Of a stretch of 64,000 nucleotides of DNA, positions 9,364-62,513 are shown piece after piece. The stretch is from IMG/VR virus record IMGVR_UViG_3300036765_000035. One strand, given 5' to 3'. This DNA comes from a virus. The position numbers and the translations under genes were made by a program. The notes under the pieces were generated by a model, which saw nothing but the letters and a program-made list of their open reading frames with translations, was not told the DNA's origin and did no database searches. Positions within the stretch are counted from its first letter, which is position 1; each line of letters begins with the position of its first letter.

Positions 9364-9951
9364 TTATTTATTTTTCAACATAAATATATCTTTTTCTGTC
9401 ATTAGATTAAATCTAATTCCTCTTTCCATGCACCATATCTTAGCATATTTCCATTTTTCTTGATTCACAGCATATATTTTTGATTCATATAGCCTATTTT
9501 TCTGTGTTCTAGCTCTTGTTGGAATAGTTTGCTTATATGGTTTAATTTCAATTATCTCTTTGATAACAGCACCATTAGAATTATAATATTCAACATATAT
9601 ATCTGGATAATAAAACGCATGTTTTGCACCTCTTCCATCAAATGTTGGTTTTATATATGGTATTTTTATTTCTTCAGATGACCAACAAATAATATTTGGA
9701 TTATTATCACAAAAATCAAAAACTTCTAATTCCCATGAAGACCTAAATATAATGTTATTCACATCACCCATATATTTATCTGGGTACTTTGGTATATATA
9801 AACCTTGTTTATAATTTGATGTTTGTTTATTATTTGGTGACTGTGTTAATTTTTTTATTTTCCCTGCTTTTTTCTTTCTTCCATTAATTGAAGTTCTTCG
9901 TGTTGAAGATGTTCGTTGAATTTTTTTTCTTGTATTTTTTATCTTACTCAT
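9364..9951 (-). CDS. PD-(D/E)xK-like nuclease-fold protein with a basic N-terminal tail
   Basis: Candidate catalytic motif in SSWE ... YYPDIYVEY ... IIEIKPYK. N-terminus is K/R/S-rich. Confidence 0.35.
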   Translation of the reverse strand: MSKIKNTRKKIQRTSSTRRTSINGRKKKAGKIKKLTQSPNNKQTSNYKQGLYIPKYPDKYMGDVNNIIFRSSWELEVFDFCDNNPNIICWSSEEIKIPYIKPTFDGRGAKHAFYYPDIYVEYYNSNGAVIKEIIEIKPYKQTIPTRARTQKNRLYESKIYAVNQEKWKYAKIWCMERGIRFNLMTEKDIFMLKNK

Positions 9952-11193: not shown

Positions 11194-11763
11194 TTATTGA
11201 CTACCTGCACCACCAGTAGCATTTTTTGTAACACCAGTAATTAACTGTCTTGCATTATCAAAACGGATTGTTGCTGTTATTCTCAATGCATCACTTGTTG
11301 AATAATCTAAATCTCCCCAATCCACATTACTAAACCATGCACCTTCTAATAACCATGATTCTAATACAAGGTCATCACCATCCAATGATTCAAGTTTAAC
11401 AGCAAATTTATACACTGAACCTGCAATAGCTGATGGCAATCTTGGTGCTGCACCATTACCAATCAATTTTTGTTGAATTTCTAATTGTTGTTGTACTGTT
11501 TGTTCTACTTGACCACCAATATCTGCTTCAAATGATATATTTACGGGTTCATATTCATGTTTACCTGCAACATATGCTTTTGAATTATATCTGTCCAATA
11601 CAACTTCATCAAATCTTACCTTTGGTCTATCTGCTGTTACAGCTTGTACTCTCAAAGGTTGTGGGTCACCAGCAATCCCTTGAAAATTGACTCTCCATTT
11701 GTGTTTTAGTTTTGGATGGAAAATACCGTTTCCATCAACACCCAAATCTGTAATTAATGCCAT
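11194..11763 (-). CDS. 19: Tail tube protein (T4 gp19 family)
   Basis: N-terminus MALITDLGVDGNGIFHPKLKHKWRVNFQGI resembles the gp19 N-terminus. Size 189 aa. Followed by a terminator and located next to the sheath module. Confidence 0.65.
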   Translation of the reverse strand: MALITDLGVDGNGIFHPKLKHKWRVNFQGIAGDPQPLRVQAVTADRPKVRFDEVVLDRYNSKAYVAGKHEYEPVNISFEADIGGQVEQTVQQQLEIQQKLIGNGAAPRLPSAIAGSVYKFAVKLESLDGDDLVLESWLLEGAWFSNVDWGDLDYSTSDALRITATIRFDNARQLITGVTKNATGGAGSQ

Positions 11764-11910
11764 TGTTTTCTCCTTATTGTTGGCTCAAATCGTTTATAAT
11801 GAACTTTCAAACATTATTTTTTTCTACATATTATTATTTATTATATTTACAAAAAAAATATTAAAAAAATTGATTTTAGGATAAATATTTTAACATAATG
11901 GAGTATTTAA

Positions 11911-12627
11911 ATGAGATTTATTGATTTTTTAAAAGAATCTGCTAATGGTTCTAAGATTATTATTCAACAAGTATTAGATAATATTGATTATGGTCATGTT
12001 GACTATAATGAAGAAGAAATTAAATTTAATGTTGGAAATATAGTTAAAAATAGTAAATTCAACAACTTAAACGTTATTATTGTACAAAGAAATAAAGATG
12101 AAATCCGTTTAGGTAAATCAAAATCAAACAATGATTATGTTATTGTTATTAAAACAACTCAAAAATTGCCTGAACGTAAAGAGATAGATACATTCATTTC
12201 AGAAAATAATAGGATATATCAATTATTTTATTCAACTTTAAAAAAATATATTAAAAGGGGGGAGTTTTCTGACAGTGATATATCCATTTATGAGAAGAAA
12301 AAACAATCACGTGAATATGGAACATTTGAAGAAATGTATAATAATGTCATTGATAAAATAAATGAAAAAATAAATGAGTTCAAATCTGTTACTAAAAAAA
12401 TGAAAGATAGAATTCAAAAAACAAATGATGAAAGTGAAAAACATAAATTGGAACTTGCTATTCTTTCATGTAAAAAAGATACAATCGGTGCATCATTTAA
12501 AGATTTTTTAAATATATCAAAAAAATTGGCATCTGAATCAAATTTTGAATTTGATAAAGAATCAAAGAATAAATTTGATTCAAGAATTGAAAGTTATTAT
12601 GAGAGTAAAGTTAATCCATTACTTTAA
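11911..12627 (+). CDS. Hypothetical protein, lone plus-strand gene inside a minus-strand structural block
   Basis: 238-aa ORF. Orientation is opposite to its neighbours, suggesting an inserted (moron-like) gene. Confidence 0.4.
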   Translation: MRFIDFLKESANGSKIIIQQVLDNIDYGHVDYNEEEIKFNVGNIVKNSKFNNLNVIIVQRNKDEIRLGKSKSNNDYVIVIKTTQKLPERKEIDTFISENNRIYQLFYSTLKKYIKRGEFSDSDISIYEKKKQSREYGTFEEMYNNVIDKINEKINEFKSVTKKMKDRIQKTNDESEKHKLELAILSCKKDTIGASFKDFLNISKKLASESNFEFDKESKNKFDSRIESYYESKVNPLL

Positions 12628-12854
12628 TCAAATTGGATTTCATCATTTGAACTTAGTGTAAAATTTAATTCAATTTGTCTTATTCCTACATTTGGTTTAA
12701 TTGTATATTCCAAAAAAATCTCATGTAAACCATCTTCATTCTTCTTTATATCAATTTTATTTAAACTATGTTCACAATTATTAAAATTGTATTCAAATGA
12801 TTTTATTCTTTTTTTATTTCTATGTTCTTCTAAACTATAAATATTATTTTTCAT
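12624..12854 (-). CDS. Small hypothetical protein
   Basis: 76-aa ORF, start/stop-coupled to the upstream endonuclease gene. Confidence 0.3.
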   Translation of the reverse strand: MKNNIYSLEEHRNKKRIKSFEYNFNNCEHSLNKIDIKKNEDGLHEIFLEYTIKPNVGIRQIELNFTLSSNDEIQFD

Positions 12855-14397
12855 TTAATGTATAACTCCAAACCATGTTCCCACAATCATATATTTTATA
12901 ATAACCCATTTCTAAAATTTTATCTTCGGTACTTTCATTAATATTTATATCCAATTTATGTCTCATAAACGATGTTCTGTGCTTTAATGTTTTAAAATCA
13001 TTTGTATACCAAGGTGATGGTGGTGAATCGTGGGTTAATTTAAAATTCAAAGTGTTATATATTTCCCCATAACTCCATCTCTTATCTGCATATGAAATAA
13101 TCTTTTTAGGTGAATAATCTTTTATAAATCTTTTAAATATTTTTGATGCAATACCAACAACACTAACATCACGTAAATTGCAATATCTACACAATTCATA
13201 TTCACCGTCAACATGCTTGGAAAAACGCAATTTAGAGAAAGTCATAACTGCAACAAGTTCATCGTTTTCATATGCACCATATCTAATTGATGATATGTCT
13301 TTCCCCTGTATATGATTTTCATTTAAGAATTTTTTAGATATTTTTGATGAAATTTCAATTACATTCGTTTTTCTGGCATATATAACTCTATTTGTTTTAT
13401 TTATAATATGTTTAATCCTAGATTTTGTTATATCTTTTTTGTATTCCCATTCACTATCAAATATTGTATACAGTTTAATGTTTTTTTCATTTGCTAACTC
13501 TCTTTTTTTTAACAAATGATTTTTATCTTTAAATAAATTAGAGTGCCAATATATTCCACAATATTCTATACCAATATTTAGTTCTGGTAAATATATATCA
13601 ATTTCTTTACCAGATAATTGTGTTCTATCATTTCTTATTACTTTACCACTATAAAACGTTTTAATCCATTCATACATTTCAGTTTCACCTTTAGATATAC
13701 AGTATTCTAACGGATAACATGTAGGACATATATTAATACCGTTTTTTGTTGATTGTCTAAATATTTGCCTAGTTCTATTGAATGTTGTTTCACATTTATT
13801 ACATTTTAAATGATACGTATAATAATCATGTGACAATATTGTTAAATTATTTTCTTTTGCTTTTATTTTAATTAAATTGTGGTATTTTATTCTTTTATTT
13901 TTTGCATTTATCAATAACTGTTCTTTTGATTTTTTTGCATGTTCATCTGATAGTTTTTCCCCCAATAACGGGCTTTTCCACCCATTTTTCTTTTTTTCTT
14001 GAATTGTTTTATTTCTTTTATTTACAGATTCAGTAGAATAAGTGTGTCCTTTTAAACTATCTGATATTTTATTTTTTGTTTCTTTAGACAATTTTTTATT
14101 TGTATTCCAATGTTCATTATTTGCATAATATTCTTTCATTGAAATAGATTGCTTATTTCTTTGCTCCTTTGATATTTGTTTACCTTTATTCCAAGGGATA
14201 ATTGTTTGTTTTGATTTTGTTTCTTTGGTTTTTTCTGATTTTTTTTTTGATACACTTTTTGACACAACTAATGGACTATTGTATTTTGACATATATTCAT
14301 CCATTGTCATATTATGTGATTTTTTTAAATGTGTTGCTGTTATTTGTTTAAAATGTTTACCACACTCTAAACATTCTATAGTATCAAATGTATTCAT
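12844..14397 (-). CDS. Free-standing homing endonuclease-like protein: N-terminal C2H2-type zinc finger, NUMOD3-like repeats, then a Vsr-like (PD-(D/E)xK) nuclease domain
   Basis: CLECGKHFKQITATHLKKSH zinc finger. NKKLSKETKNKISDSLKG and GEKLSDEHAKKSKEQ are NUMOD3-like. IEYCGIYWHS ... IKLYTIFDSEW resembles the Vsr FVDGCFWHGH ... GWxVxxVWE signature. The gene sits between tube and sheath genes, which are adjacent in T4. Confidence 0.6.
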   Translation of the reverse strand: MNTFDTIECLECGKHFKQITATHLKKSHNMTMDEYMSKYNSPLVVSKSVSKKKSEKTKETKSKQTIIPWNKGKQISKEQRNKQSISMKEYYANNEHWNTNKKLSKETKNKISDSLKGHTYSTESVNKRNKTIQEKKKNGWKSPLLGEKLSDEHAKKSKEQLLINAKNKRIKYHNLIKIKAKENNLTILSHDYYTYHLKCNKCETTFNRTRQIFRQSTKNGINICPTCYPLEYCISKGETEMYEWIKTFYSGKVIRNDRTQLSGKEIDIYLPELNIGIEYCGIYWHSNLFKDKNHLLKKRELANEKNIKLYTIFDSEWEYKKDITKSRIKHIINKTNRVIYARKTNVIEISSKISKKFLNENHIQGKDISSIRYGAYENDELVAVMTFSKLRFSKHVDGEYELCRYCNLRDVSVVGIASKIFKRFIKDYSPKKIISYADKRWSYGEIYNTLNFKLTHDSPPSPWYTNDFKTLKHRTSFMRHKLDININESTEDKILEMGYYKIYDCGNMVWSYTLNEK

Positions 14398-14410
14398 TCT
14401 CTTATTTTAA

Positions 14411-14439
14411 ATAAAAAAAATGGGGAAGTCAATTCCCCA
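14411..14439 (-). terminator. Hairpin terminator (TGGGGAA..TTCCCCA) flanked by an A-run, downstream of the sheath gene
   Basis: 7-bp GC-rich stem, which is exceptional in this AT-rich DNA, plus an A9 run on the plus strand (a U-run on the minus transcript). Confidence 0.6.
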
Positions 14440-14464
14440 TTTTTAATATCAATTAAAAATTATG

Positions 14465-16624
14465 TTATCCAATTAATATTTCTCTTCCACCAATGTCAGT
14501 TCCAGTATTTACAACCCTAACAGGCACATAAATAAATTCTACCGCTTTAACTGGTTTAATAGCAACGTCTATCCATAACTCATTTCTATCAATTCTGTCA
14601 GGAGTATTATTAGTTTCATTACACAATGATGCATAATCATATAATCCTCTTCTAGATATTAATTCAGCCAAAGTTGAATCTGTTGTTGCTTTAGCATTTT
14701 CTCTTGTAATTTCATCATTTGGGTCAAACAAATATGGGAACAATGCATGACGCAAAGTTCTTTTAATATATTTAACTAACCTTGATACATTTACTCTATC
14801 TAACGCTGATGATGCACCATATGATGTTTTTTGACCTAACACCATAATACCTCTACCTGCCATAAATGTTATTGGATTAATATCTTTTGGTGATTCATAT
14901 AATGAATCACGTGTACCAAAATCAATATAATCTTCAACAAATGTTGTTGGACCTCCTAATGTTCCAGAAACATATCCAATTTTTGTCAAATGTGGACATT
15001 CACCACGTTGAACACCAGCAGGTGCAAACCATAATTCACCGTTTAAATCATTATATGCAAATACTCTAAGTGCTGTTGATGCAGCAGATGTCATGATATC
15101 TTTTCCATCTAAATTAGATGATATACCATGAGGATAGTAATATGCTATATGATAAGAAGAATGATTTCTTTCTGGTGTTTGTGACCACACTGTAATTCCT
15201 AAAGGTCCTGTTGGTGGTTTATCAAATGGTGTTTCACCTATAACAAATACCTCTTCAAACAAATCTTCAGATAATCTGATTAATTCATCACTAGCTTCAG
15301 GAAATCCCGGTGCTAATGTTACATTATAAGTAACATATTCACCACGTATATTTGTATCAGGGTTATTAATTACTTGTTGAATTTGAGTTTTTACTTCTAA
15401 TCTTCTTTCAGAATCATTTGCACCAAGTGATGTTTCAAACAAAAATTCTCTTGTGTTATCGAAATCATCGGATGCTGCTAATAATAACCCTTCTGCTTCA
15501 TCGGCTGTAAATTCAGTTCCAACAACTGCACCAATGGACCAGTTATCTATTAATGAATATAATCCGTCATATCCACCAACAATTGTCGAATATGTATTAT
15601 CATATACATCCAAGTCACCGATACCTACACCCCCAACTGGTGTGTCAAATGATTCAAATAAGTTAACATTAGCAAATAATGCTGTTGTTCCACTTTGACC
15701 ATCTGTTAAAATCTCAACACTTGATGTTACACCTTTCAAACCAGATGTTATTCTTATTCTACCTTGAATCAATTCAACTGTTGTGTTTACATCTGTTGTA
15801 ACCGCTTGAATTTCGTTTTGGATTTCTAATATTAGTTCTCCAAATGTTTGTGCATCTTGACCAAAAATTGTAACTGGTACAACATTTGTTCCACCACTGT
15901 CTACAACTTCCACTTCAAAACCATATACAGTTGAATCATTTGTTAAACCTGTAATATCTGATTCCTGTAGGTATCCACCAGATGTATCAAATAATACATC
16001 TTGATATCCTGCATGGTCTTCAGTATGTGATTGTAAGAACCCTTGTTCAAAACCATCTGAACTAAATGAATATGATGTTAAAACATCTGTCAGTGCTTCA
16101 TTTAATAGTGGTTTAAGCTCTTCACCTGTCACTGTTTTTTTGTAACCTACATCAGCAGGAACTAAACTATTAACTCCATTATATTCTGTAATATAATCAT
16201 TTACTAATACATTTAGAAAATCTGCTGATTCTCCTATTTTTCTTGACCACAAAGTTTTTATAGACTCCAAGTCATCTGCCAGATTAACATTTGCTCGTAT
16301 AACATATGCTCTGTTACCCAACTCCAAAAACTTGTTTAAAGCATCTAAACCATACTCATTTCTTACATCACCATGATGTGCTTGACCGTCAGCACTTTCC
16401 AAGAATCTTGGAATACCATACAGTTCAGCACTTTGTCTAAGAGATGTTACTTCTCTCAAAACACCATGTTCAAATGTCCCAAGTGCAGGTGTGATACCAT
16501 CTGCTTGTAATTTTTCATCAGCAGTTGCTATAAAAATAAGTGGTACTGTTGTAGGTGCACCAGATGGATAAAATGATTCATCTATTATTGACACACTTAC
16601 TGCTGGACTTATTAATGCTGGCAT
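14465..16624 (-). CDS. 18: Contractile tail sheath protein (T4 gp18-like)
   Basis: N-terminus MPALISPAVSVSIIDES is typical of sheath proteins (M..L.SPGV..E.D.S). 719 aa, next to the tube gene. Confidence 0.8.
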   Translation of the reverse strand: MPALISPAVSVSIIDESFYPSGAPTTVPLIFIATADEKLQADGITPALGTFEHGVLREVTSLRQSAELYGIPRFLESADGQAHHGDVRNEYGLDALNKFLELGNRAYVIRANVNLADDLESIKTLWSRKIGESADFLNVLVNDYITEYNGVNSLVPADVGYKKTVTGEELKPLLNEALTDVLTSYSFSSDGFEQGFLQSHTEDHAGYQDVLFDTSGGYLQESDITGLTNDSTVYGFEVEVVDSGGTNVVPVTIFGQDAQTFGELILEIQNEIQAVTTDVNTTVELIQGRIRITSGLKGVTSSVEILTDGQSGTTALFANVNLFESFDTPVGGVGIGDLDVYDNTYSTIVGGYDGLYSLIDNWSIGAVVGTEFTADEAEGLLLAASDDFDNTREFLFETSLGANDSERRLEVKTQIQQVINNPDTNIRGEYVTYNVTLAPGFPEASDELIRLSEDLFEEVFVIGETPFDKPPTGPLGITVWSQTPERNHSSYHIAYYYPHGISSNLDGKDIMTSAASTALRVFAYNDLNGELWFAPAGVQRGECPHLTKIGYVSGTLGGPTTFVEDYIDFGTRDSLYESPKDINPITFMAGRGIMVLGQKTSYGASSALDRVNVSRLVKYIKRTLRHALFPYLFDPNDEITRENAKATTDSTLAELISRRGLYDYASLCNETNNTPDRIDRNELWIDVAIKPVKAVEFIYVPVRVVNTGTDIGGREILIG

Positions 16625-17502: not shown

Positions 17503-20500
17503 TTAATAATTTGGTAAATTATAATATGTTGCCATATCACTTTCTATTGATAATATATCAGGTGTTGGGACGTTGGTTGGGTATATGATTATCTCCTGTA
17601 CATATCCAATTGAATTACGTGTTGCATCTGCACCAAATCCAATATTATGCGTTGACCATGTTAATGTATTTGCATCAGATATTGTCAACATTGATTGTAC
17701 TCCAAACAATTCACCATAAAGACCATTTGCACTATTTCCAACATCAACAGCATTTGCATACATTGTTGGTGTACCTGCATTGGCATAACTTGATGAAAGT
17801 GTTGTATTTTCTGAAAATCCAACATATTCATTTATACTATCATGCATTAATACACCAGAATCTCTTGTTTGTTTTATAACTGCAAATATTGTTGTACTAG
17901 ATGAGCCACTAAAGAATGATGATAATATATCAGATTCATTTGATACATATTTAAATTTAAACGCTGGGTTTGAGTTCAATGTTTCCATACCATTATTATA
18001 TATTGTTGGTTGTAATAATGGGTCTGATTGTATCCAATCGTTTCCATTACCAGATTGGTCATATACTCTAACAACATACATAGTTACCCATGGTCCCCCT
18101 GCAAAAGAAACAATTGAAGTTGTATCCAAATTATTAGACCCATCATATCCAATATCCAACTCTGCATCATCTGTACTACGTCTTACCCTTAATATTGGTC
18201 CTTCATAATATTTATCTATTCTTCTAGAAGAAGACATTGCACTTATTGCACCACTATAATCATTTAATAGTAAATTTGCACTACTACTTGCACTAGGTGT
18301 CGGTGTTGGTGTAGGTGTATTACTTGCTGTTGGACTAGGTGTTACACTAACTGTTGGTGTCGGTGTTGGTGTAGGTGTATTAGTTGGTGTAATACTTGGA
18401 GTTACACTAGCACTTGGAGCAGGTGTTGAGCTAGGTGTTACACTTGGTGTAGGACTAGGTGTTACACTTGGTGTTGGTGTTGGTGTAGGGCTAGGTGTTA
18501 CACTTGGTGTAGGACTAGGTGATACAACTGGAACGTTTGGTATTTGACATTCACCGTTCTCTTCTAATACATAATCCAATGCCACTAAATTATTTACTGG
18601 TGGAATTACATTTTGTGATATTTCAGCAGATATCCATGATGTTTTAAAGAAATCTTTGACTTCTTTTTTGACACTAAACACATCATGTAACACATCGAAA
18701 AATATATCATTTACTTCTGTTATAGAAAAATTTTGATATATATATTCCATTGAATCAATTATGTCTTTATTTGTATCAAAGGAATAATTCTTTCTAAATT
18801 CATTTATATCAATATATCCAAAGTTTCTATTACTATCGTTAATAATACCCAATATTGATTCTAATGCCAAATCTGCTTTTACAAATATTTGTTCTTTTCC
18901 TAAACCATATTTTGTATCTGCATCATATAAACTATCATATAGTTTTCTGTTATAAGATGGCAGTGGAATATCATCATATAATGTTCCATCAACATATTTG
19001 TAACCTATTAATGCTTCTGTTATTTCATCCCATAATACTTTATCTATTTTTTCAAATTGACCTCTTCTAATTAATTTCCATTCTTCATGGACATTTTTTA
19101 AATATAAATTAGATTTAAACGCATCTTGGTTTGGCATTCTGTCTCTTAAAGTAAAATCTCTAGTGAATCTTAATGAATATCTATTATTATCTTTAACAGT
19201 TCCTTCTAGATTTTTTGCAATCATTTGTGTATATCTAAATGGCAAGTCATATTCATATTCATCATAAACATTACCATAAATCAAACCATATCCATAATCA
19301 GGTGTTTTAATGCCTTGTAATATCATATAAGGATGTGGCATATTTTTTAATTGCTTTTCAGCTTCATAACATGAAATTCCTGTACCTTGTTGATTTATAA
19401 TATGTTTTGTCTTTTTATTTCTTACCCAAAAATAATATTTGTATTCTGTTTTATTTCCATTTTTGTTATGGTTTGCTACCATATTATATGGTCGTACTAT
19501 TTTAAAATCACCATTAGCAAATTCAGTATCTGTTATTTCAAGAACTGTTGTTAAGTGAATATACGCACCTATACCATATGTTGCAATATAATCGTTTACA
19601 TGTGTTATATTGACTATTTTTCTTTCAATGAACTTTCCATTAATGTAAACATCTGTTTCTACCAATGGCAACAGTAATGTTGCATCTTCCACTCCTAATA
19701 TCCATTCAAAATGTTCTTTTTTAACCTCTAAATAATATTCATAACTTGTGACAGTTTGTGTAAACGGATTATAATCATATTGGATAAATCTTGCATGTAT
19801 TTGTTGTAATGGAATTCCAGTAATTTTTTCAGATAGCAATTTATTTGAGTTTGCTTCATCTAAAATTGACAATTCCTCATATTCATCTGGTGGTACATCT
19901 GACTCTACCCATTCATATAATGCAATATCAGACCATTCAGATTTTTCCCCCCAAACTTTTATTCTATCATTTAATTTTGGATATATTGATTTATCGTAAT
20001 ATGGTAAATATCCTTCTGCATAATCGTCAAACCATACTTGACCAACAAATTTTGAACCCCATAATGGTTTTTGATTTTCATATTTTGCTGGGTCTTCATC
20101 ACCTTTATATGTAACAATGTAATTAGATATATGGTAATATTGACCCAATGCTGGATTCCACAATGGTATATTTGTCACAACTGTACCAGAACTTTTATCA
20201 ATTAATTTTGCTGGATTCTGTGCATCAAACTCATATGTTAATAAACTTACTTTTAATCCTGACACACCATCAATGCTACTCGAAAATTGAATAAATTTAG
20301 ATGATAAAAATTCAAAATCATCACCTTCTATTAAAAATACATCTTTTTCTTGAACAGAATCATAATATGATATTATTGCACCATCTGCAATCATTCCATT
20401 TAAATCTAATAGTCTATGATTACCTGATTGTGAATATAATAACGTTTCTGCATTTTCAATTATATCTAATACTTTAGTATTAAAATAAAATGAAACTCTT

Positions 20501-23500
20501 GGTGAAAATTGTTCTAACTCATCTGGTTGATTCCACCATCGTGATTTATCAGTTAATTTTATTGGTTCAAACGTTTCATCCAATTGACCGCCTTCTGGTT
20601 CAATAAACTCTAATCTTAATTCAGTCCTTACAACATCATCTGTATATAGTTTTAATTCTGGATATATTTTTTCTTTTGAATCACCAAATGTTCCAAGTTT
20701 ATATGCCCAAAACTCATCAATAATTGCACTTTGGTATATTTTTTGGTTTGTAAATGCATCTATTGCATATTTTGTTCCTTTGGATTGAATCATTCCTCTC
20801 CAAAATATGAATTGTGATTTTGGATTCAATTTTATGTCATCCATATAATCTTTTGTTCCATCAAATCCCATTGATTTTCTTAACAATTTAGTGGCATCGC
20901 TACCTTCTAAAGATGTATATGTGCTATAAAAATTTCTCATTTCATCAACAGAACCTTCAATGTTTTGAATTTGTTGTTTATCTAACAACATTGTTCCACC
21001 AACGTTTGGTCTTAATGTAAAATCATTTTGTCTGTTAAACTGTACGGAAAATCTTGGTGTATTTAAACCAAAAAATGAATCATATATTAATACATTATTT
21101 GTAGAATAATCAGAAAATTGTATAATATGTTCATATGCATCCAAGAATAAGTTCATACCAGAAATATATGTTTTATTTTTATCTTTTGTATATTCTTTAT
21201 TGTTATTTTGTGTAATAGAATCAATTAATGATATATGTGATTGTCTATCATTTCTATATATCACCAATTCATCATTTGTCATTTTACTTCCATGATTATC
21301 ATATATATGAGGGGATATATAATTATTTTCTCCTTTAAATACATTTGATATTACACCAGTATCATGTTCAACCCATACGTTATTTTTAAATGGATTTAAT
21401 TCAAATGTTGGTAACTTTTTGATATCAATATATATTTTTGCTTTAAGTGTCCCAATTCCATCATCAGAAAATTGAATAGCTTTACCTTTTTTTGCATCCA
21501 ACAATGAAGATGCCAATTGAAAAGTGTTATTGTTTGTTCCTCTTATGACATAATATGGTATAGTAGCCGATATAGGATTATTGAACACAGTTGGAAGTGA
21601 ACTTCCGCTTTCAGCAATTAATAATATTCTTGTTCCATTTTGCCATGTTGATACAGCATTATTTAATAAAGTGAAACTATTGTTTGTATTATCAAATGCA
21701 ATGTTATATTCTAATTGATTGTCTTGTTTTAATGTTTTTAACTTATAAAAGTTATCAATCATTTTTTCAATTTCTAACTGCCATTCGTTTGGTCTACCTT
21801 CATCCAAATCAACATTATCACCTATATGATTTGATATAGTAAACCCAATGTCATTTAAATAATCAGAATATCCATGTATCACATCAATAATATTTTGAAT
21901 TTCTGTTATAGTAAATGGTGCAACCCTTGTTATGATATTTCTTTTATCAGAAAAATGTTTTTTCCAAACACTTTGAGTTTGTTTTTGTTTTAATATATTG
22001 AAAGTTCTTTCGATGTTTCCAATCATATGTTGACCGTTGCCATCATCTGAAACTCCAATTGTTATATTTTTTAATGCATTTTTTTCATTTTCTGCTAAAC
22101 TAAATTCTCTATCATTTAATCTTATTAAATAATATGGATATTCAGGAGTTAAACCATTTGGTAATTCGTCATTTGATGATACAAAAATTTCTTTTCCTGT
22201 AACCCATTCATCTGGTAATGTTAATGCATTATTAGATTCAATTGTCCCATCAATAACGTTTGATGACATTATAACATCTTCATACACATAAATATTTGTT
22301 ATTCCAACATTATCATATGTTACATTTTTAACTGTGTATGTTCCATTAAAATTTGTTGAATTAGTGACAGTAAAGGTTGACCCAATACTAAATTCTAGTA
22401 AATTATTTCCCTTAACTTTAAATACTTTTTCAAATTCTATATCCATTAAATCAGATGCCTTAATTGATATAAAACTTGAATGTAAATTGTTAAATAAATC
22501 TATATCAGTTATTGATATTGAAGATGATACTCCATTTGTTTGACTAGAAATAACAATATTTCCTTCTTTCAAATATGCAGTTGCATTATTTCCTAATTGG
22601 GTATTGATAACATTTAATAAATCCTGAAATGTTATTGTATCTGTACCATCAACAATTAAATCAATATTAAGTAATCCATCAACCAAAACATTAGCAGAAT
22701 ATGTGGTTGCTGTATTTAATTCTGTTTGTTTACTCAAATATATACTATTGCCATAGTCAATTACTTGATATCCATTTTCATCAACATAATCAACATCATA
22801 CACATCATGTGTATACAATCTAAATGTATCATTTTCACCATTTTTTAATTTAAATTGATAATTTTCTGGGTGATAATATGATATTGTTCTATTTACCAAT
22901 GAATTAGTATCTAAACTTATATTCCAACCAATTCCATTATCTCTATTTGGAGCATACTTACTGGGAATACTTAATAGTGTTGCATTTAACGAATCTAATG
23001 AGATATCTCTAATGCCATTTGTTTTTTTAAATAAAATGTTATAATCTTTGTTCGTTATATCAAAATTTTCACTATATATTAAAAAATTTTGCGTATCAAT
23101 AAATGCACCAAACATATATGATAATTTTGATTCCCAATCTTTCCATAAACTTCTAAATTCAGATGATACACCATCATACCCATTAAATCGATTATAATGT
23201 ACATACCATTGGTTCAAACCATTCATTTTTTTAACATTTGTTGTTCCATCAATAAAATCACCATGAAACTCAACATTTTTATGAGATGGTACTGTTTTTG
23301 TTTCTTTATCAACATTTAAACATGAAATAAATGTCAAATCATATCCAAAGTTTTGGAATATGAATCTCATTGGTTGTAATTTATATGATATCACCAATTT
23401 GTCATATTCTTTTCTAGACGAATTTCTCCATAACCATTCAAACTTGCCATTTTGACCAAATTCGAAATCATCAAAAGTTGTTACACCGAAATCTTGTTCA

Positions 23501-26500
23501 TTTGCATCATACACTGACCTTACATTTATATTTGCAGAATTACTAGAATTCCAAAATGGTGGCAATAATTCATCAGACTTATATCCATCAACAGTTGTTG
23601 AATTATCAATATTAACTGAAAAATAAGTAAATGTATTTAATATTTGACCTGCTAACCCTGTCCCATATGTTTCATATGCATCTTCTTCAGCATCATTTAT
23701 AAATGTTGTTGTACTGACTATTCCCTTGTCTAATGGAATTATTCCATTTAAAATATTAACCCACATTTGTTCTTTCCAATATCTATCAACAAATGGGTCA
23801 TCATTCAAATATTCCTCATCCCACCATTCAGGTTTATTATTATAATTTTGTAACATCCAAGGTTCTTTATGTGGGTATGGTGTGTTATATACCTTTTCAT
23901 ACAATGCTTGCCATGAACCACCAACATCATTTGATATAGTTCCTGTCAATGGATGTGTTTGTATTTGAGTATATGAATAATTCCATGTAAATGGGTCATT
24001 TTGCCTATAATAATTTAAATTACTCAATGGATTATCTATTCCAATATTTTTATAATATTGAATAAATTGTTCATATGATAAATTGTTATATTTTACATCT
24101 GATAATATTGAGTCAAAATCAAATTGACTCACGACATTAAAATCAACAACATCATATAATTTCTTTTCTATTTGATATAATGCTTCCTGTAGTATTAAAT
24201 TTAAATTTACTTCTTCCCAAATATCTAATGATAAATTATACCTATATAATCTACGTGTGTTTTTATTGGTATTTGTTCTAATAATATAATCACCATTTTC
24301 TAATGGTTGACCGTTTAATAATAAAGGAAAACTTTCATTATCATCTAATATTGTAAAACTTTCATTATTTACAACACTAAATATATCATTGTACATTAAT
24401 TCAAGTTCAGGTTTTTCATAACCAACTTTACTTCTATGACCATCATGATGAATTAACTCAACTTCTTGTGTTTTTTCATCATATATTTTATGTGGAACAT
24501 GTTTTTTACTCATTCCAAATATTACTGGTGATGCAATCCAATTTCTAACACCATTATTTCCATTATAAGATGTTGTGTCACCAAACCATTTATTTAATCT
24601 ATCATTATTTTCAAATTCATCTATTAAATATTCAACTATTGCATTTTGCATAGAAATAACACCGTCATATGATAAATCTGTCAACATATTTCTTGCTTTT
24701 GTTCTGAAAGTCTCTATTATATGTTGCTTTTGGAACATATATGTATCATGTGCAAAGTTTATTAATTCTATAGGTGTCACATTTTTTACAAAAATTGATG
24801 ACAATAAAGTATCAAAACCATCATTATGTTCCTTTATTGTTCCACCAATACCATAATTCACATCATCATTCACATAAAAATAATCTATGTCATTTAATAA
24901 AGATACAATGGGTTTTTGTGATGATATAATTGTTGTAAAATGACGATATAATTCTGTAAGTTTTACATCTCTTCTATTTTCATGTTCAACATTGAAATAC
25001 ATTTGATTCGGCAAATTCCAATTTTCATCTTCATCTTTGTAAGGTTTATATTCTTCAAGATTTTTCCCCTTCTTCCATACAGTTTGTATTTCATCATTTA
25101 CTAGGGAAATGTCTTTATATCCATATATTTCATTTGTATTTTCATTTATTAATAAATTCTCAAATGTATAATCTCTTTTAATTGTATCATGTTCTATTCT
25201 TTTCAATATATTCAGATTTAATGGATATTCTGATGATTCTTTAAATCTAAATATTTCATTTGCAAAAAGTTGAGGTTCTTCAAAAACATCAAATATTCTA
25301 AAAATAGGATATTGGTGTATTTCTGTTTTTGTTTGTTCAATTTTTTTAAAATTTGTTAAGTTGTATAATTCAATCCCTGTTGGTGTGTTTACTTCAACAT
25401 GTCTTTTACCTGATTCTTCAAGAGCGTATTCTCCTACTTCAACTCTAACTCTATCTCTTTCTCCTTTTACAAAAACATCATCATCAAATGTAATCCCTGA
25501 AACATAGATATTATCATCACTTAATTCAGTAAAATTGCCATATTGTCTGACATCATTTATATATACTCTGATATCTCCTTCTTGATAGTCCTCTATCAAA
25601 CATTTATCTCTTAACCTTATATCAATTGATGATGGAAACACAACAGTTTTTGCATAACCATCTGTATCATATACGCATTCAATATAATTATAATTTGTGA
25701 CATATTCATATTTATGTACTGGATTTACTCCAATATTCAAATATGAACTTAAAAATGGGTTAACTTCTGGTGTTATACTTGTTGGTATTACTTCTTTAAT
25801 TCCTAATAATTTCCAATGTTCTAAATGACCTTCAAATATATCTCCCCTTGATGTATATTTTGGTGTAATTGATGAGCCAATTGGTTTATCTGTTATATCA
25901 ATCAAAGCTTCTTTTAATGTTATCTCAATTCTATCTATGCTGTATGATGAAATAGACTGAATTGTATATTGTCCACTATTTAATTCAAAATCTGATAATA
26001 TTATGTAATCCCCTATGTTAGATTCATCTACAAAAAGTCCATATTTTCTTGAAAATCGTATTGTATTTTTATCAATTAATTCAAATTCTTCGTTTCCATT
26101 ATTTACAATGTTTAACAATTCAAATAATTTTGGCTCATTGTCAATTTGAACATAATCACTTAAAGATGTTTTCCTATATTCCCATTCTTTTACAGAATAT
26201 GCAACATGTGTTAATTCCAAATATGGTGAATATTCGATAATAGGCATTTGTGCCTTTACTTTTCCTGTGAATGTTTTTAATTGTGATTTATGTTTCCACT
26301 TATTTTGTTCTGCCCAATCATTTGTTGGAAAACTATCAATTGTATGTTTCCCATTAGATAACAAGGAAAATGTTGTAAAATTCTTTATGATGATATTCCA
26401 AGATACACCATCCCATTGAAGTATATCATCAGTTACATCATTCCAATATACATCATTTATCTCAGGTGATATTGGTGCTGTGCTTGATTTTGTATTATCT

Positions 26501-27867
26501 ATTAAAAATTTTCTATAAACAAAATAATCAAATTTTCCGTCGGTAAAAAAGAATGGCAAGTTTGATGTCCACCACAATTGATTTATAGATGAGTAACCAA
26601 AAAATTCACGTTCTCCTATATTTGGTCCTGATGTTATAACAACAACATCACCATCATTAACAATGCTTAAATCAACAACAGTGTCATTCATTGAAATATT
26701 AGAAAAAAGGACTTCACCTCTTGTTGATTCTAATATTACTTGTTTTTTATTCCATAAAATTTCACCAATATTACTTTCTTTAAAACTTGTAAATTTATTT
26801 GAATAATTATTACACACATAGTTTTTTTCACCTTCTATTTCAAGTAAGTGGGGTGATAATGTAATTGTTGTATCAGTTAATGATGATATTTCTTCATTAA
26901 CTGTAATCGTTGTTAAATTTGTTAAAACATCATAAGTTGATTCTTTTACACTCCAAAACGTTAGTACACTATTTGATGATACCGAAGATGCGAATACATA
27001 CCCATTTATTAACAGTTTTGTTAAATCATTCGATATTTTAATCGTTTTATCAATGTCATTATATGAAATAATTTTTTGTGTGGTGTTTACAACATATTGC
27101 ATATTAAACTCTGATGGCATTACTCTACCACTAGTAGTATCAAAAAATATTTCTGTTTGTGTTGTTGATGGATTATATACAACATTTAAAACTTCATATA
27201 TTTCAACATCTCTATCACTATTTGAACATGCCAATATGTTTCCTATATTTGCAAATGAAGTTTTATTTCCATTTATACAGATTTTATTTAAATTATAATC
27301 ATGTGCAACTATTGTTTCATTTGGTAATACATCTGTTACAGCTCTATTTGTTTCTAATAACCTTGCATTTGACCAAGTACACAAATTTTTAATTGTTATG
27401 TATTGTGGAACATCATTAAAAGATGACACATCCCAATAATAATTTTGATAATTAACTATTTTATCAATATCAATTGGTGGGACAAAGTTGAATTGTGTTG
27501 AATTTCCCCATGATGAAAAATTATCTAAATCAACACCTGTTCTCTCTATACGTGTTAAAAAATCTTCAAATGACATAAAATTATCAACATCACCAATTTT
27601 TGTATGCAATACTGGTTGTAATTGATTATTTTGTCTAAATGTGTTAATTTCTGTTATAGGGAATTCATTAGGGGAAGCTATATTATATTCTTCTCCTATT
27701 AATCCAATAATTCTTTGATACTCTGGTTTTGAAAAAACTCTGTTATATAAATTATGATTTATTGTTTCAACTAATTTTGTTCTATTAACACTAGGTAATA
27801 GATTATTTAAATCTGTTCTAACTTTTTTATAATCTGATAAATTTTTGTCTTGCACGGATTTCCCCAA
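17503..27867 (-). CDS. Giant (3454 aa) baseplate/tail-fibre protein with a C-terminal Pro/Thr/Ser-rich linker and a distal domain
   Basis: Single uninterrupted ORF after the gp6-like gene. PT linker [22 protein letters not shown]... lies about 85 aa before a roughly 260-aa C-terminal domain. Confidence 0.6.
18290..18540 (-). repeat. Imperfect tandem DNA repeats (ggtgttggtgtaggtgtatta... units) encoding the Pro/Thr/Ser linker of the giant protein
   Basis: cggtgttggtgtaggtgtatta occurs twice about 60 nt apart, with many degenerate copies. Confidence 0.7.
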
Positions 27868-48080: not shown

Positions 48081-49778
48081 ATGGCAATAACAAAATATTA
48101 TAAAATAGTACAACCATCACATGATATAGTTGCAAGAGCAGATAATGCATCTATGAGTGGTATGTTATATGGTAATTATACATGGTATCATAGGTTAGTT
48201 CATGGCTCAAGTTCAAGAATAGTTAAATACAAAGAATATGATTTAATGGATGAAGATATTGATGTTGCACGTTCATTAGATATTATTGCAGAAGAGATGA
48301 CTGGTAATAGTCCAAAAACAAAAGAACCATTATTAATAAAATTAAATGATGAATATGGTCAAACAATACAAAGCAATACAGTTATAACATTAAAAGCTGC
48401 ATTGGCAACATGGTCAAGAATACAAGCATGGAAAACAAGATTATTTACAATAGCAAGACAAACAATTAAATATGGTGATTGCTTTTTTATACGACCTGAA
48501 AATACAAATGAAAAAATAATATATGTTCATCCAAAAAATGTATTATCCGCTGTTGTTTCCGAAAATGATATTTCAGATATTAGAGGGTGGTACATTCGTG
48601 ATAGATATATGCAACAAACATCAACAAACCAACCATATAATAGTATGGCAAATGGTTCCGATATTGCAAGTGCCGATGTTATAGCATATTTAGAAGATGA
48701 TATTATTAGGTTTTCATTAAATGATGAAATGTCAGATGAAGCTCCTTTTGGTATTTCAATATTAAGACCTGTTTATAAAACTTTTAAACAAAAAGAATTA
48801 TTAGAGGATGCAATATTAATATATCGTATTCAACGTGCACCAGAAAAAAGAGTATATTATGTAGATGTAGGTAAAACTCCACCAAATATGGTATCTGCTG
48901 TTTTACAGAATATTAAAAATGAGCTTAAACAAAAGAAAATACCGACATATTATGGTGGAAAATCAACAATTGATTCAATCTATAATCCAGAATCTATGTC
49001 AGAAGATATATTTTTACCACAACGTTCAGACGGTTCAGGGAGTAAAGTAGAAACATTGCCCGGTGGTGCAGGCTTGGGTGAATTAGCAGACTTAGAATAT
49101 TTTTATAAAAAAATGTGGAGAGCAATGCGTATCCCGAATTCATATATGTCTAACATGACTGAAGATGGTTCTGTTGATAATAATGGGAGAGTTGGTATTG
49201 CGTATATGCAGGAAATTAAGTTTAGTTTATATATCCAAAGGTTACAAAAATCAATTGAAGTAACAATGGATAAAGAATTTAAAAGATATTTACATACTAT
49301 TGGAATAAAAATCGACCCTACAATGTATGATGTAGTTTTACCAGAACCTTCTGATTATAGTAAATCTAAAGAATCTTCAACAAATCAAGAAAATGTTGGA
49401 ATATACACAAGTGTAGATGGAATAGAATCATTATCAAAACGTTTTTCTATGAAGAAATACTTACAATTAACACCTGATGAAATTAAAGAAAATGAAAGAT
49501 TGAAAGCAGAAGAATTAGGGTTAGATATGGATAATGATAAAAATAATTTGGCAAAAATATATAATCCAAAAGAAGCTGAATTAGGTGGATTCGAAGGTGG
49601 ATTGGGTGGAAGTCCATCATTTGGTGGTGGAATGAGTGGAGGTGGTGAAGGATTACCATCAGAAGAAAATGAAGGTGGAGAAAATACTGAAGGTGAACAA
49701 AATCCAGAAAATTCTCCAACTCAAAAGGGAATGAATGGTAATTCAATACAACAATCACCAGAAACACCACCACTATAA
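48081..49778 (+). CDS. 20: Portal vertex protein (T4 gp20-like)
   Basis: [30 protein letters not shown] aligns with T4 gp20 [62 protein letters not shown] aligns with [33 protein letters not shown]. Confidence 0.85.
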   Translation: [565 protein letters not shown]

Positions 49779-50746: not shown

Positions 50747-51063
50747 TGAAAGAAAAATTAAAAAAAGTTATTGAATGTATTAGAAACAATAATTTCGATG
50801 AAGCAAACATTGCCTTTTCTGAATATGTTGAAGAAAAGAGTTCAGAAATTTTAGCAAATAAATATATCTCTGAAAATGAAGATGCTAATGATGTTGTGGA
50901 TAAAAAAAAGAAAAAATTGAAAGATAAGAAAAATGTTGATGATACAAAAGATAAAAATTTTGTTGCAAAACATATGAGAACTTTCAATAAATCTCAAACA
51001 CACAGAGATAGAAAAAATGACTATTCTAGGAAAGAAAAACATAAAGGAAAGGGGTTTGAATAA
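50746..51063 (+). CDS. Prohead core protein gp67-like (acidic/basic low-complexity tail)
   Basis: N-terminus LKKVIECIRNNNFDEANIAFSEYVEE resembles T4 gp67 LIEAIKSNDLVAARKLFAEAM, followed by a charged tail. T4 order is 20-67-68-21. Confidence 0.4.
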   Translation: MKEKLKKVIECIRNNNFDEANIAFSEYVEEKSSEILANKYISENEDANDVVDKKKKKLKDKKNVDDTKDKNFVAKHMRTFNKSQTHRDRKNDYSRKEKHKGKGFE

Positions 51064-51686
51064 TGAGTGAAATATTAATTGAACAAGTTGTTCCATCACA
51101 AGGTGGCATTATAACAGAAAGAGTAAATAACGGTGATGTTTGGATTCAGGGAATATATATGCAAGCAGAAACCAAAAATAGAAATGGTAGAAATTATCCA
51201 TTGGCTGAAATGGTTGCTGCTGTAAACCAAGCAAATGTCGCTATAAAAGAAAATGGTGGGATATTCGGGGAGTTAGACCATCCACAAACCATAACAATTA
51301 ATATGGATAGAATATCACATGTTATAACAGAATTATACATGAATGGAAATAATGCTATAGGTAAAGCTAAATTATTAGATACACCAATGGGGTTGATTGC
51401 AAAAGAATTAGCAAAATCAGGTGTTAGATATGGTGTTTCTAGTCGTGGTGCTGGTACTGTAAATGAAGCAGGTATTGTATCAGGTTTTGGATTAGTAACA
51501 GTTGATTTAGTTGTAACACCATCTGCACAAGGTGCAATGCCAAATGTTGTATATGAATCATTAGATTTGGCAAACAATGGTAAAGAAATCATTAAATTGG
51601 CAGAATGTGTCAAACATGATAAGGAAGCACAAAAATATTTTCAAAAAGAGATTTTAAAATTTGTTAAACAATATTTATATAAATAA
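51063..51686 (+). CDS. 21: Prohead core protease (T4 gp21-like)
   Basis: GIYMQAETKNRNGRNYP / GELDHP / GVSSRGAG match T4 gp21 GIFMQAEVVNRNKRLYP / GELNHP / GVSSRGLG. Confidence 0.85.
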   Translation: MSEILIEQVVPSQGGIITERVNNGDVWIQGIYMQAETKNRNGRNYPLAEMVAAVNQANVAIKENGGIFGELDHPQTITINMDRISHVITELYMNGNNAIGKAKLLDTPMGLIAKELAKSGVRYGVSSRGAGTVNEAGIVSGFGLVTVDLVVTPSAQGAMPNVVYESLDLANNGKEIIKLAECVKHDKEAQKYFQKEILKFVKQYLYK

Positions 51687-51752: not shown

Positions 51753-53618
51753 ATGGAAAAATGGAAAACACTTCAACCTACAACGTCAGATATTTCTGAC
51801 GTTTCTTTTTTAGTTAAGGAATATAAAGATAAAAAAACTTCAAATATTCGAATTAAATATCCACAAGAATATGTGAATTTAATCAATATAACAAGTTTTT
51901 TACCTAATAATGCATCCACAACAAATAGATTATGGCATATTGAACATAATGTATTAGAAACAATTAAATGTGAAAAATGTAAAATAAATGATGTTAAATG
52001 GTATCCATCAAAAGGTGGATATGGTGAATATTGTTCAGTAAAATGTTCGAGTAATTCAAATGATACAAAAAATAAAATAAAAGAAACCAATTTAAAAAAG
52101 TATGGTGAAACATCATATACAAAAACAAAAAAACATAAAAAATTTTTAAAGTCTGATGAATTTAAAAATATAATGAATTCAAGAGAAGTTATAAACAAAA
52201 GAAAGAAAACTAATCTTGATAGATATGGAGTAGAAGAAATATTCCAATCTAATGAAATACAAGAAAAAATTAAAGAAACAAATGAAACAAGATATGGTGT
52301 TGACAACCCTATTAAATCGGATGAAATAAAAGATAAAATAAAAAGAACAAATTTAGAAAAATATGGAACTGAAACTCCATTTCAAAACAGTGAAATAAGA
52401 GATAAAGCTAAAGAAACACTTTATTCAGAATATGGTGTTGAATATGGGTTGCAAGCAAAAGAAATATTAGATAAAACAAAACAAAAATATTACGAAAGAA
52501 CAGGATATTCAACCCCATTTAACAATCCAATAGTTAAAGAAAAAATCAAAGAAATTTTTAAGAAAAAATATGGTGTACACCCAACACTCAAACAGTTTTC
52601 AGATAGAACAATCCAACGAATAAATGATGCAGAATGGTTGAAAGAAAAACACCATACTGAACAAAAAACATTGACAGAAATTTCTTTAAAATATCTTGAA
52701 GGATATGATATATCATCATTGTCAAATAGAATGAAACAATTTGGAATTGAAATAAATTCAAAATTGGTTTCCTTTGCAGAAAAACAATTAAGAGAATATA
52801 TAATATCTTTAGGTATCGATATTGTAACCAATGATAGAAAAACTATATCACCAATGGAATTAGATATATACATTCCAAGTTATAATATTGCAATTGAGTA
52901 TTGTGGAATATATTGGCATTCAGAATTATATAAAGATAAAAAATATCATAAAAATAAATACGAAAAGTGTAAAACACAAGGAATCAGATTAATAACCATT
53001 TTTGAGAATGAATGGATATACAAAAAAGATATTGTAAAAAATAAAATAAAGCATATTTTAGGGAAAACAATAACAAAAATATTTGCAAGAAAATGTAAAA
53101 TACGAGAACCAAGAAAAAAGGATGTTATTGAATTTATAAACAATAATCATATACAAGGATTTAAAGCATCAACAAATTACATTTCATTATATTATGATAA
53201 CAAGATGGTTTCATGTATGTGTTTAACAAAAATAAAAGAAGGATTATACAATATCGATAGGTTTGCATCAAATACAACTGTTATAGGTGGATTTAGTAAA
53301 TTATTAAAATATTTTATAAAAAATAATTTTGATAAGATTGATAAAATTGAAACTTTTTCTGATAATAGATGGGATAATGGTAATGTTTATTTAATAAATG
53401 GATTTAAACATGATAAAGAACTAGCAGAAGATTACTCATATGTTGTTAAAGATAAAACATATCATAAATCAAATTATAGAAAAAAGAATTTAAAAAATAA
53501 ATTACATTACTATGATTCAAATTTGACAGAACATCAAAATTGTTTTAATAATAAAATATATAGAATATATGATTGTGGGAAAGTTAAATTTACTTTAGAT
53601 ATAAAAAAAGAGGAATAA
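51753..53618 (+). CDS. Free-standing homing endonuclease-like protein, a paralog of 12844..14397. N-terminal Cys cluster, six roughly 30-aa K.K.TN..KYG... repeats, then a Vsr-like PD-(D/E)xK nuclease domain.
   Basis: ELDIYIPSYNIAIEYCGIYWHSELYKDK ... GIRLITIFENEW parallels the other copy and the Vsr signature. The shared C-terminal block ends KIYRIYDCGKVKF (compare KIYDCGNMVWSY). Confidence 0.6.
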   Translation: MEKWKTLQPTTSDISDVSFLVKEYKDKKTSNIRIKYPQEYVNLINITSFLPNNASTTNRLWHIEHNVLETIKCEKCKINDVKWYPSKGGYGEYCSVKCSSNSNDTKNKIKETNLKKYGETSYTKTKKHKKFLKSDEFKNIMNSREVINKRKKTNLDRYGVEEIFQSNEIQEKIKETNETRYGVDNPIKSDEIKDKIKRTNLEKYGTETPFQNSEIRDKAKETLYSEYGVEYGLQAKEILDKTKQKYYERTGYSTPFNNPIVKEKIKEIFKKKYGVHPTLKQFSDRTIQRINDAEWLKEKHHTEQKTLTEISLKYLEGYDISSLSNRMKQFGIEINSKLVSFAEKQLREYIISLGIDIVTNDRKTISPMELDIYIPSYNIAIEYCGIYWHSELYKDKKYHKNKYEKCKTQGIRLITIFENEWIYKKDIVKNKIKHILGKTITKIFARKCKIREPRKKDVIEFINNNHIQGFKASTNYISLYYDNKMVSCMCLTKIKEGLYNIDRFASNTTVIGGFSKLLKYFIKNNFDKIDKIETFSDNRWDNGNVYLINGFKHDKELAEDYSYVVKDKTYHKSNYRKKNLKNKLHYYDSNLTEHQNCFNNKIYRIYDCGKVKFTLDIKKEE

Positions 53619-53630
53619 ATCCTCTTTTTT
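53608..53630. terminator. Bidirectional hairpin terminator (AAGAGGA-ataaa-TCCTCTT) between convergent genes
   Basis: 7-bp stem flanked by an A6 run and a T6 run. Confidence 0.55.
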
Positions 53631-53994
53631 AACTTAAACCAAGCATTGCATCATTTCTTCTTCTAGCACCATCCCTTTCTCTAGGTCCACCTTGAGTAGC
53701 TTGAACATTACGTGGTACTCTACCACGAGCCTTGAATGCCCTAGAATCTGCTGAACCATATTCCTTGGCATATTTAGCCATATTGACCCCACGTGGTGTT
53801 AATTCTTCATCAGGTGTTGCTAAACCATATGCAACTAAATCATCAAATGCATCAAGTGTACTTTCTTTTGCAACACTTAAATCTAACGCACCATCATACA
53901 TTTTTTTAAGAACAAACACATGTATTGGTAATAAGTCATTAAGTTTAACATCATCTGATTCAAATGATTCAAATAAAACGTTTTTTATTTTCAT
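53629..53994 (-). CDS. Small protein with locally elevated GC and atypical codon usage, with an Arg/Gly-rich C-terminal tail. Possible recent horizontal acquisition; function unknown.
   Basis: 121-aa ORF whose DNA (ccacgtggtgt..., gccctagaatctgctgaacc...) is visibly more GC-rich than its surroundings. C-terminus ARGRVPRNVQATQGGPRERDGARRRN. Confidence 0.4.
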   Translation of the reverse strand: MKIKNVLFESFESDDVKLNDLLPIHVFVLKKMYDGALDLSVAKESTLDAFDDLVAYGLATPDEELTPRGVNMAKYAKEYGSADSRAFKARGRVPRNVQATQGGPRERDGARRRNDAMLGLS

Positions 53995-54206: not shown

Positions 54207-54221
54207 AAACAAAAACATTTC

Positions 54222-61089: not shown

Positions 61090-61154
61090 ATCTTTTATTT
61101 TTTAATATTAAAAGATTCATAAATAAAATATTATGAAACTTGAAAATATATTAT

Positions 61155-61407: not shown

Positions 61408-61413
61408 ATTTTT

Positions 61414-62502: not shown

Positions 62503-62513
62503 TATAAAAAAGG

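Follow-up and report, generated by a model that had tools for sequence, protein, structure and literature searches.

The viral record IMGVR_UViG_3300036765_000035 was analysed over a stretch of 64,000 nucleotides, hereafter the window, which belongs to the genome of an AT-rich T4-like myovirus. Two open reading frames (ORFs) of the window, labelled A and B (Table 1), had been described in an initial annotation as diverged paralogs of a Vsr-like homing-endonuclease family, each placed between conserved structural genes, and a check of the ORFs showed that the coordinates given for both were exact. The virion genes around them were recognised with PHROG profiles, which also identified a sheath stabiliser gene near A. 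As had been claimed, A lies between the sheath and tail tube genes, with two orphan ORFs alongside, and B immediately follows the head maturation protease gene, with no scaffold or capsid gene downstream of it in the window. The GC content is 27.4% for the window, 24.8% for A and 23.1% for B, and that of the adjoining virion genes is 31-36% (34-36% for the sheath and tube genes beside A). The exact A protein is present on six public contigs, where its context is unchanged. A third copy in the window was ruled out, as a tblastn search with the region common to both proteins returned A and B alone.

Table 1. Positions of the two endonuclease genes, their domains and the neighbouring features in the window
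Feature	Position	Strand	Description
Tail tube gene	11194-11763		PHROG profile
Insert between tube and sheath	11764..14464		2.7 kb; A plus orphan ORFs 12624-12854 (-) and 11911-12627 (+)
ORF A	12844..14397	-	517 aa (amino acids); Hef-type (EDxHD family) free-standing endonuclease gene
A residues 335-517	12847..13395	-	Mom-like GNAT domain: H362, R404, S418, D438, R440, Y447
A residues 232-333	13399..13704	-	Vsr-like (EDxHD-type) nuclease: E238, D267, E278, C280 (x position), H285, H294/L295, K298
A residues 185-228	13714..13845	-	CxxC...CxxC zinc ribbon (C199, C202, C224, C227), just before the nuclease
A residues 69-118	14044..14193	-	NUMOD3-like basic repeats (WNKGKQISKEQRNKQS, WNTNKKLSKETKNKIS)
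A residues 5-60	14218..14385	-	Ros/MucR-type C2H2 zinc finger (C9, C12, H23, H28)
Terminator-like hairpin	14416..14444	-	12-bp stem and T run; flanked by the stop codon of the sheath gene and the start of A
Sheath gene	14465-16624		PHROG profile
Portal gene	48081-49778		PHROG profile; upstream of B
Head maturation protease gene	51063-51686		PHROG profile; directly before B
ORF B	51753..53618	+	621 aa; second Hef-type endonuclease gene
B residues 1-98	51753..52046	+	Lineage-specific N-terminal region with 4-Cys cluster (C73, C76, C94, C98)
B residues ~100-285	52050..52607	+	DUF7487 repeat array (K.K.TN...YG), core period 23 aa
B residues 337-437	52761..53063	+	Vsr-like nuclease: E343, D371, E382, C384, H389, H399, K402
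B residues 439-621	53067..53615	+	Mom-like GNAT domain: H466, R503, S515, D537, R539, Y546

Domain architecture of A and B

Pairwise alignment of the two proteins by BLASTP gave 36% identity between residues 234-511 of A and 339-614 of B (288 aa, E 5e-46), a similarity well past chance. This common region is about three times as long as a Vsr-like domain, the nuclease taking up about 100 aa of it. The final ~180 aa make up a distinct, Mom-like domain, which was missed in the initial annotation.

A homologue search with the common module recovered 327 homologues from 5.8 billion proteins, and the family alignment and profile were made from 98 sequences, comprising A, B and 96 homologues, to which the conservation counts given here refer. 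The family profile matched the catalytic domain of the homing endonuclease I-Bth0305I (3r3p) with an E value of 1.5e-5, and the I-Bth0305I fragment scored 37.3 bits against the family hidden Markov model (HMM). Structural models of the nuclease domain matched 3r3p (Foldseek probability 1.00, TM 0.69) as well as Vsr 1vsr and 3hrl. The motif IEYCGIYWHS, noted previously, is found in both proteins (A 277-286, B 381-390), as is the TIF motif, in the form of TIFDSEW in A (311-317) and TIFENEW in B (415-421). The catalytic acidic residues are not missing from either copy: D267/D371 and E278/E382 (A/B) are invariant in the 98 sequences, together with H285/H389 and K298/K402, and E238/E343 is kept in 90 of them. 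The E, D, x and H of the EDxHD motif correspond to E238, D267, C280 and H285 in A and to E343, D371, C384 and H389 in B. The element IF(D/E)xEW is conserved, with 76 members having Glu and 21 Asp at the position of E316, and yet it is not the equivalent of Vsr D97 or I-Bth0305I D222. The latter residue aligns ungapped with family column 295, which is His in 90 of the 98 sequences; judging by this alignment, the Hef branch bears a variant fifth motif residue.

The EDxHD family was named by Taylor et al. in 2011 and includes the phage Hef-type homing endonucleases (PMC3239194). Its members carry the DNA-binding region at the N-terminus and the Vsr-like nuclease at the C-terminus (PMC3239194). 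Therefore, the order of domains in A and B, which had been called reversed and unusual, is the norm of the family.

For the C-terminal domain, the top Foldseek match was Mom of phage Mu (8bv8), and 30 of the 98 close homologues matched the Pfam Mom family at E <= 0.001 (best 8.6e-10). The domain of B was assigned by homology to the modelled domain of A and by residue conservation. Mom moves glycine from Gly-tRNA(Gly) onto the N6 of adenine in double-stranded DNA, and its activity needs R111, S124, D149 and R151, and also Y159 and H58. Mom R101, in a numbering that is 10 lower, is Mom-specific and not general in GNATs (PMC7261163). In the register given by hhalign, R111 of Mom falls on R404 of A and R503 of B (98/98), S124 on S418 and S515 (86/98), D149 on D438 and D537 (89/98), R151 on R440 and R539 (69/98), and Y159 on Y447 and Y546 (98/98). 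H362 of A and H466 of B are invariant too (98/98), and this His is tentatively considered the equivalent of Mom H58. These residues suggest that the Mom-like domain most likely acts on DNA, either as an enzyme or by base flipping, and the enzymatic role is likelier than a purely structural one because the residues of Mom catalysis are retained. In the homologue from the T-even phage FL18 (L017 2661-4253), an Asn stands at the position equivalent to Mom D149, and a short deletion is found just upstream of that position. The literature searched contained no experimental data on any nuclease-Mom fusion, and no paper that joined Hef and Mom or tested the Mom-like domain of Hef-type proteins.

The N-terminal parts of the two proteins are built from other modules. 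The Cys clusters pointed out in the initial annotation are real; in A they belong to a zinc finger and a zinc ribbon, and in B to the lineage-specific N-terminal region (Table 1). The zinc finger of A matched Pfam ROS_MUCR (E 3.1e-10, 40.6 bits against a cutoff of 25.4) and the Ros structure 2jsp in the PDB (E 4.5e-4), the Ros zinc finger being the sole match of A in a phmmer search of the PDB sequences. The NUMOD3-like repeats, also described before, are marginal in A, with Pfam NUMOD3 (PF07460) matching at E 7.2e-4 and 19.9 bits against a cutoff of 20.4; in P0002, a homologue of A, the NUMOD3 match reached 34.7 bits. The zinc ribbon was modelled as a three-stranded sheet and a helix with a predicted local distance difference test (pLDDT) score >90, and gave weak matches to Zn_ribbon_8 and LIM.

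Over residues 4-183, B shares 44% identity with the homologue that occupies the same junction in L006, and the N-terminal region of B is absent from Hef-like genes at other sites. The repeats of B correspond to Pfam DUF7487 (PF24308; E 1.7e-30, 107 bits against a cutoff of 27). Although the array is real, its core period is 23 aa and not roughly 30 aa as first read, with YG at 158, 181, 204 and 227, nor is such an array unusual, as DUF7487 repeats occur in 46 of the 98 sequences. N-termini are exchanged among the homologues, with DUF7487, DUF723, DUF4379, CapR, NUMOD3, Ros/MucR and helix-turn-helix (HTH) types being found. Homologues at the same site have a common N-terminus, whereas Hef-like genes elsewhere share with A and B only the C-terminal module. 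The variable N-terminus of A and B probably reads DNA sequence.

Occupancy of the junctions and abundance of the family

Relatives of the window were collected through the protease (11 relatives) and through the tube protein; a search of viral contigs with the sheath protein gave no confirmed locus. At the protease junction of L004 and L006, the next gene is a homologue of B, near full length and including the N-terminal region. The order in L004 is protease, Hef-like gene, phrog_10922 protein, major head protein and a second Hef-like gene. The gene is absent after the protease in L009, where the protease is joined straight to the tube gene, in L008, where a phrog_10922 protein comes next, and in L003, where a DprA-like gene and then the tube gene are found further on. 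At the other junction, L013-L015 have the order sheath stabiliser, sheath and tube, with a gap of only 110-120 bp between sheath and tube. In the closer relative L018, with a sheath protein 73% identical, the sheath gene is followed by an A orthologue (56%) and by a homologue of the 238-aa orphan ORF. At both junctions, the endonuclease gene is thus present in some relatives and absent from others, and the gene order of the window departs from that of the relatives exactly at A and B, in agreement with the earlier statement that each copy sits at a synteny break.

Both proteins belong to PHROG families annotated as homing endonucleases, with A matching PHROG 3339 (E 6.6e-86) and PHROG 559 (E 6.4e-86) and B matching PHROG 3339 (E 1e-139), and the DNA and protein matches land on genes annotated as Hef-like or Hef71. 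In a phage database, 418 records carry the module, of which 391 have at least 80% of it covered, and the copies per genome go up to 12 (Campylobacter phages), with five places in one Pseudomonas phage. Among 1.84 billion cluster representatives searched with HMMER, 21,329 clusters matched at E <= 1e-3 and 8,255 at E <= 1e-30. The module is C-terminal in 149 of the 150 best matches listed. Four homologues of 880-1064 aa (P0122, P0124, P0206 and P0235) were matched by the module in two stretches and may be tandem or fused versions of it. Hence A and B are ordinary members of an abundant and already annotated family; as members of a family of thousands that is annotated as homing endonucleases, they are routine.

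A recent duplication within the genome was dismissed, as B came last when the 97 family relatives of A were ranked. The initial annotation was right in seeing two diverged copies, which nevertheless are not each other's closest relatives.

Regarding the surroundings of A, terminator-like sites are more frequent in the region than expected (3 seen vs 0.5 expected), and sigma-70-like promoters around A are not above chance (29 sites vs 27 expected). The 76-aa orphan ORF at 12624-12854 (-) has the same orientation as A and overlaps its stop codon by 11 nt. The 238-aa orphan ORF at 11911-12627 (+) is convergent, and its homologue at the equivalent position of L018 is 35% identical. Neither matched a PHROG family. 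Both may be cargo carried along with the endonuclease gene. Next to the sheath stabiliser gene lies a single giant ORF of 3454 aa (17503-27867, minus strand). A gene of the tail module at 9364-9951 (-) has a precomputed Pfam match to Tn7_TnsA-like_N, a PD-(D/E)xK nuclease-type domain, and is kept beside the tube module in L003, L009 and L013-L015.

Around B, the sequence TATAAATA overlapping the protease stop codon was considered and set aside as uninformative because the genome has 27% GC. A 121-aa orphan ORF (53629-53994, minus strand), on the opposite strand right after B, had no match among the PHROG families. A lone tRNA-Trp (54133-54206) lies some 500 bp beyond B, and nine further tRNAs are clustered at 61015-63695 (Glu, His, Ala, Pro, Tyr, Arg, Lys, Phe and Asn); tRNA-Gly, the co-substrate of Mom, is not among the tRNAs of the window. 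A mechanically called ORF at 54135-54875 starts inside the tRNA-Trp, and its true start is probably later. It is followed by a gene for a DprA-like recombination mediator (54877-55425, plus strand; PHROG 768, E 4.4e-51), 1.3 kb downstream of B, whose homologue in L003 is directly upstream of the tube gene.

Proposed homing function and alternative roles

Altogether, A and B are probably separately evolving, free-standing and selfish homing-endonuclease genes of the Hef branch of the EDxHD family, established at virion-gene junctions and spread by cut-and-copy homing, with a Mom-like domain that acts on DNA. The core of this reading was already that of the initial annotation and is supported by the conserved residues and by the polymorphism of the loci; homing itself is suggested by family membership and the same polymorphism, and the GC content of A and B, below that of the adjoining virion genes, also speaks indirectly for mobility. 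We infer cleavage, homing and DNA modification by A and B on top of the architecture, folds, residue conservation and presence/absence polymorphism observed here.

In a related genome that lacks the element and is present in a co-infection, the N-terminus would bind within the adjacent conserved gene or close to it, and the Vsr-like nuclease would cut the bound site. Recombinational repair would then copy the endonuclease gene together with flanking DNA into the cut genome. Since flanks would be copied along with the element, homing of this kind could explain why both copies mark rearrangement boundaries. As for the Mom-like domain, the simplest suggestion is that the carrier genome is spared because this domain marks adenines within or close to the site that the element itself targets; it may also be a dimerisation platform that pairs two nuclease domains.

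Several observations weigh against this proposal. Taken alone, A and B gave sub-threshold matches to all Vsr and MTES_1575 profiles of Pfam and NCBIfam. MTES_1575 matched A and B with E values from 0.04 to 1.7e-4, the latter for the nuclease domain of B alone, which also matched Vsr PF03852 (E 0.021, 15.1 bits vs a cutoff of 27). B further matched TIGR00632 vsr (E 0.0087, 16.3 vs 97.85 bits); A had no match to these two Vsr profiles. The Vsr-like assignment therefore fell short with direct profiles, but it is significant with the family profile and the structures. For the C-terminal segments, neither A nor B matched Pfam Mom (PF25680) even at E <= 10. Only 69 of the 98 sequences keep the R151 equivalent, and in FL18 the D149 position is occupied by Asn; catalysis of the Mom type may not extend to the whole family, and some Hef-type proteins may no longer have it. 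In column 295, B has H399 and A has L295, with H294 adjacent, and the final Asp of the motif is absent from both. D222 of I-Bth0305I is a putative metal ligand and the D222N mutant is without cleavage, so that the nuclease of A, with Leu at this position, could be impaired. Moreover, the A orthologue in L018 is less conserved than the adjacent sheath (56% vs 73% identity), which disfavours a recent transfer. Finally, an alignment of the protease 3' ends and the DNA that follows them, taken from relatives that carry the gene and relatives that lack it, defined no target site because the relatives are too diverged (45-75% protein identity).

Among the alternatives, it is possible, if rather unlikely, that the Mom-like domain is a non-catalytic module for dimerisation or DNA clamping, and that A and B are plain homing endonucleases without modification chemistry. 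Mu Mom is dimeric, its W48A mutant is monomeric with only residual activity, and the family position aligned with W48 (F357) is kept in 97 of the 98 sequences. I-Bth0305I also acts as a dimer (PMC3239194), and the variable R151 equivalent and the D-to-N change of FL18 would fit a domain of this kind. However, the presence of R404, Y447 and H362 in all sequences, with S418 and D438 in most of them, indicates a preserved active-site pattern and not a scaffold.

The conserved catalytic residues of Mom would also suit single-polypeptide conflict enzymes resembling restriction-modification systems, in which the Mom-like domain would broadly modify adenines of the phage DNA and the nuclease would break down host or competitor DNA lacking the modification, A and B then not being homing elements. 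This function has been predicted for jumbo-phage fusions of restriction endonuclease (REase) and Mom domains (PMC7824862), and the presence of several copies in many phages (five in the Pseudomonas phage, at most 12 in Campylobacter phages) is in line with it. We consider it unlikely, since the swapped reader-type N-termini, their linkage to the site and the presence or absence of the genes at fixed junctions suit site-specific selfish elements better. In addition, the same architecture is found at the hef locus, where homing has been reported, and no PADLOC defence model matched A or B.

The restriction-modification and homing readings are compatible rather than mutually exclusive. A speculative proposal, to which we give a low probability, can also be put forward: Hef-type proteins would be bifunctional, with the Mom-like domain working as a site-directed adenine acyl- or aminoacyl-transferase on the protein's own recognition site in the carrier genome, so that one polypeptide would make a self-immunising "homing restriction-modification" unit. 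The L295 variants would perhaps be shifting to modification only.

It is doubtful that one or both copies are decaying or domesticated and no longer cut DNA. A would be the stronger candidate, as it has Leu where 90 of the 98 sequences have His and I-Bth0305I has its essential D222, and the divergence of its orthologue exceeds that of the sheath gene next to it. Against decay, both ORFs are intact and full length and keep the nuclease D, E, H and K and all the mapped Mom residues, while the H294-L295 arrangement is common to A and its closest homologues, P0001 and P0002, and is hence a clade trait rather than a private lesion. Lastly, true Vsr-type mismatch-repair nickases serving phage DNA repair are extremely improbable, because the weak Vsr profile matches of B and the fold match to 1vsr are outweighed by scores far under the cutoffs, by a homing enzyme, I-Bth0305I, as closest solved relative, and by large DNA-binding N-termini, a Mom-like fusion, two divergent copies and variable loci that misfit housekeeping repair.

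As homing-endonuclease genes, A and B are useful markers, since the gene order differs from that of the relatives at both, which fits nucleases that delimit blocks of genetic exchange. If the Mom-like domain is active, it would provide a concrete mechanism by which free-standing homing endonucleases spare their own genome, and tRNA- or acyl-dependent hypermodification of DNA would become the activity of a much wider, very large set of phage proteins.

Comparison with known systems

Vsr and the nuclease of A and B have in common a diverged PD-(D/E)xK-type fold, in which, by way of I-Bth0305I, Vsr D51 corresponds to D267 and H69 to H285. Vsr is a single-domain mismatch nickase, whereas A and B carry an extra invariant Glu (E278) at the position of Vsr F62. 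The EDxHD prototype I-Bth0305I is closer, with a homologous catalytic domain, the same order of a DNA-binding N-terminus followed by the nuclease, and equivalents in A and B for E170, D196, E206, the N208 position and H213. Nevertheless, I-Bth0305I is intron-encoded, has NUMOD and HTH motifs and ends with the nuclease, while A and B are free-standing and contain different N-terminal modules as well as an additional Mom-like domain of ~180 aa, and replace its essential D222 by His (B) or Leu (A). Mu Mom (8bv8), in turn, is a stand-alone protein of 231-241 aa with 17-20% identity to the C-terminal domain of A and B.

A two-domain fusion as in A and B was described by Iyer et al. in 2021 for jumbo phages, where Mom domains fused to REase-fold nucleases were read as modification-plus-restriction units and "five momylating enzymes" were reported for PA5oct; the link to Hef was not drawn (PMC7824862). 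The five places of the module in one Pseudomonas phage agree with the five of PA5oct, and we infer that the jumbo-phage fusions and the Hef-type module are the same set. The Hef class, for which homing has been reported, would then have the same architecture as the nuclease-Mom fusions read as restriction-modification units.

The Hef and Hef-like proteins themselves (U5 hef; F-LimIII, VII, VIII and X of LIMEstone1; Hef71 of Campylobacter phages) have PHROG families in common with A and B. The hef gene was described at the nrdA-nrdB locus, with its product cutting nrdB (PMC2988022), and the corresponding locus of FL18 was used here as a stand-in for U5 Hef. Exactly between nrdA and nrdB, FL18 encodes a protein of 530 aa that carries the complete module and matches the family HMM with an E value of 1e-95. 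Hef-like genes and A and B are alike in being free-standing and beside conserved genes, and they differ in the N-terminal DNA-binding modules and in the insertion sites, with 26-46% identity between A or B and the isolate-phage homologues listed. Among the four free-standing Hef-like genes of LIMEstone1, one adjoins the tail tube gene (PMC3296691), which is a precedent for the position of A.

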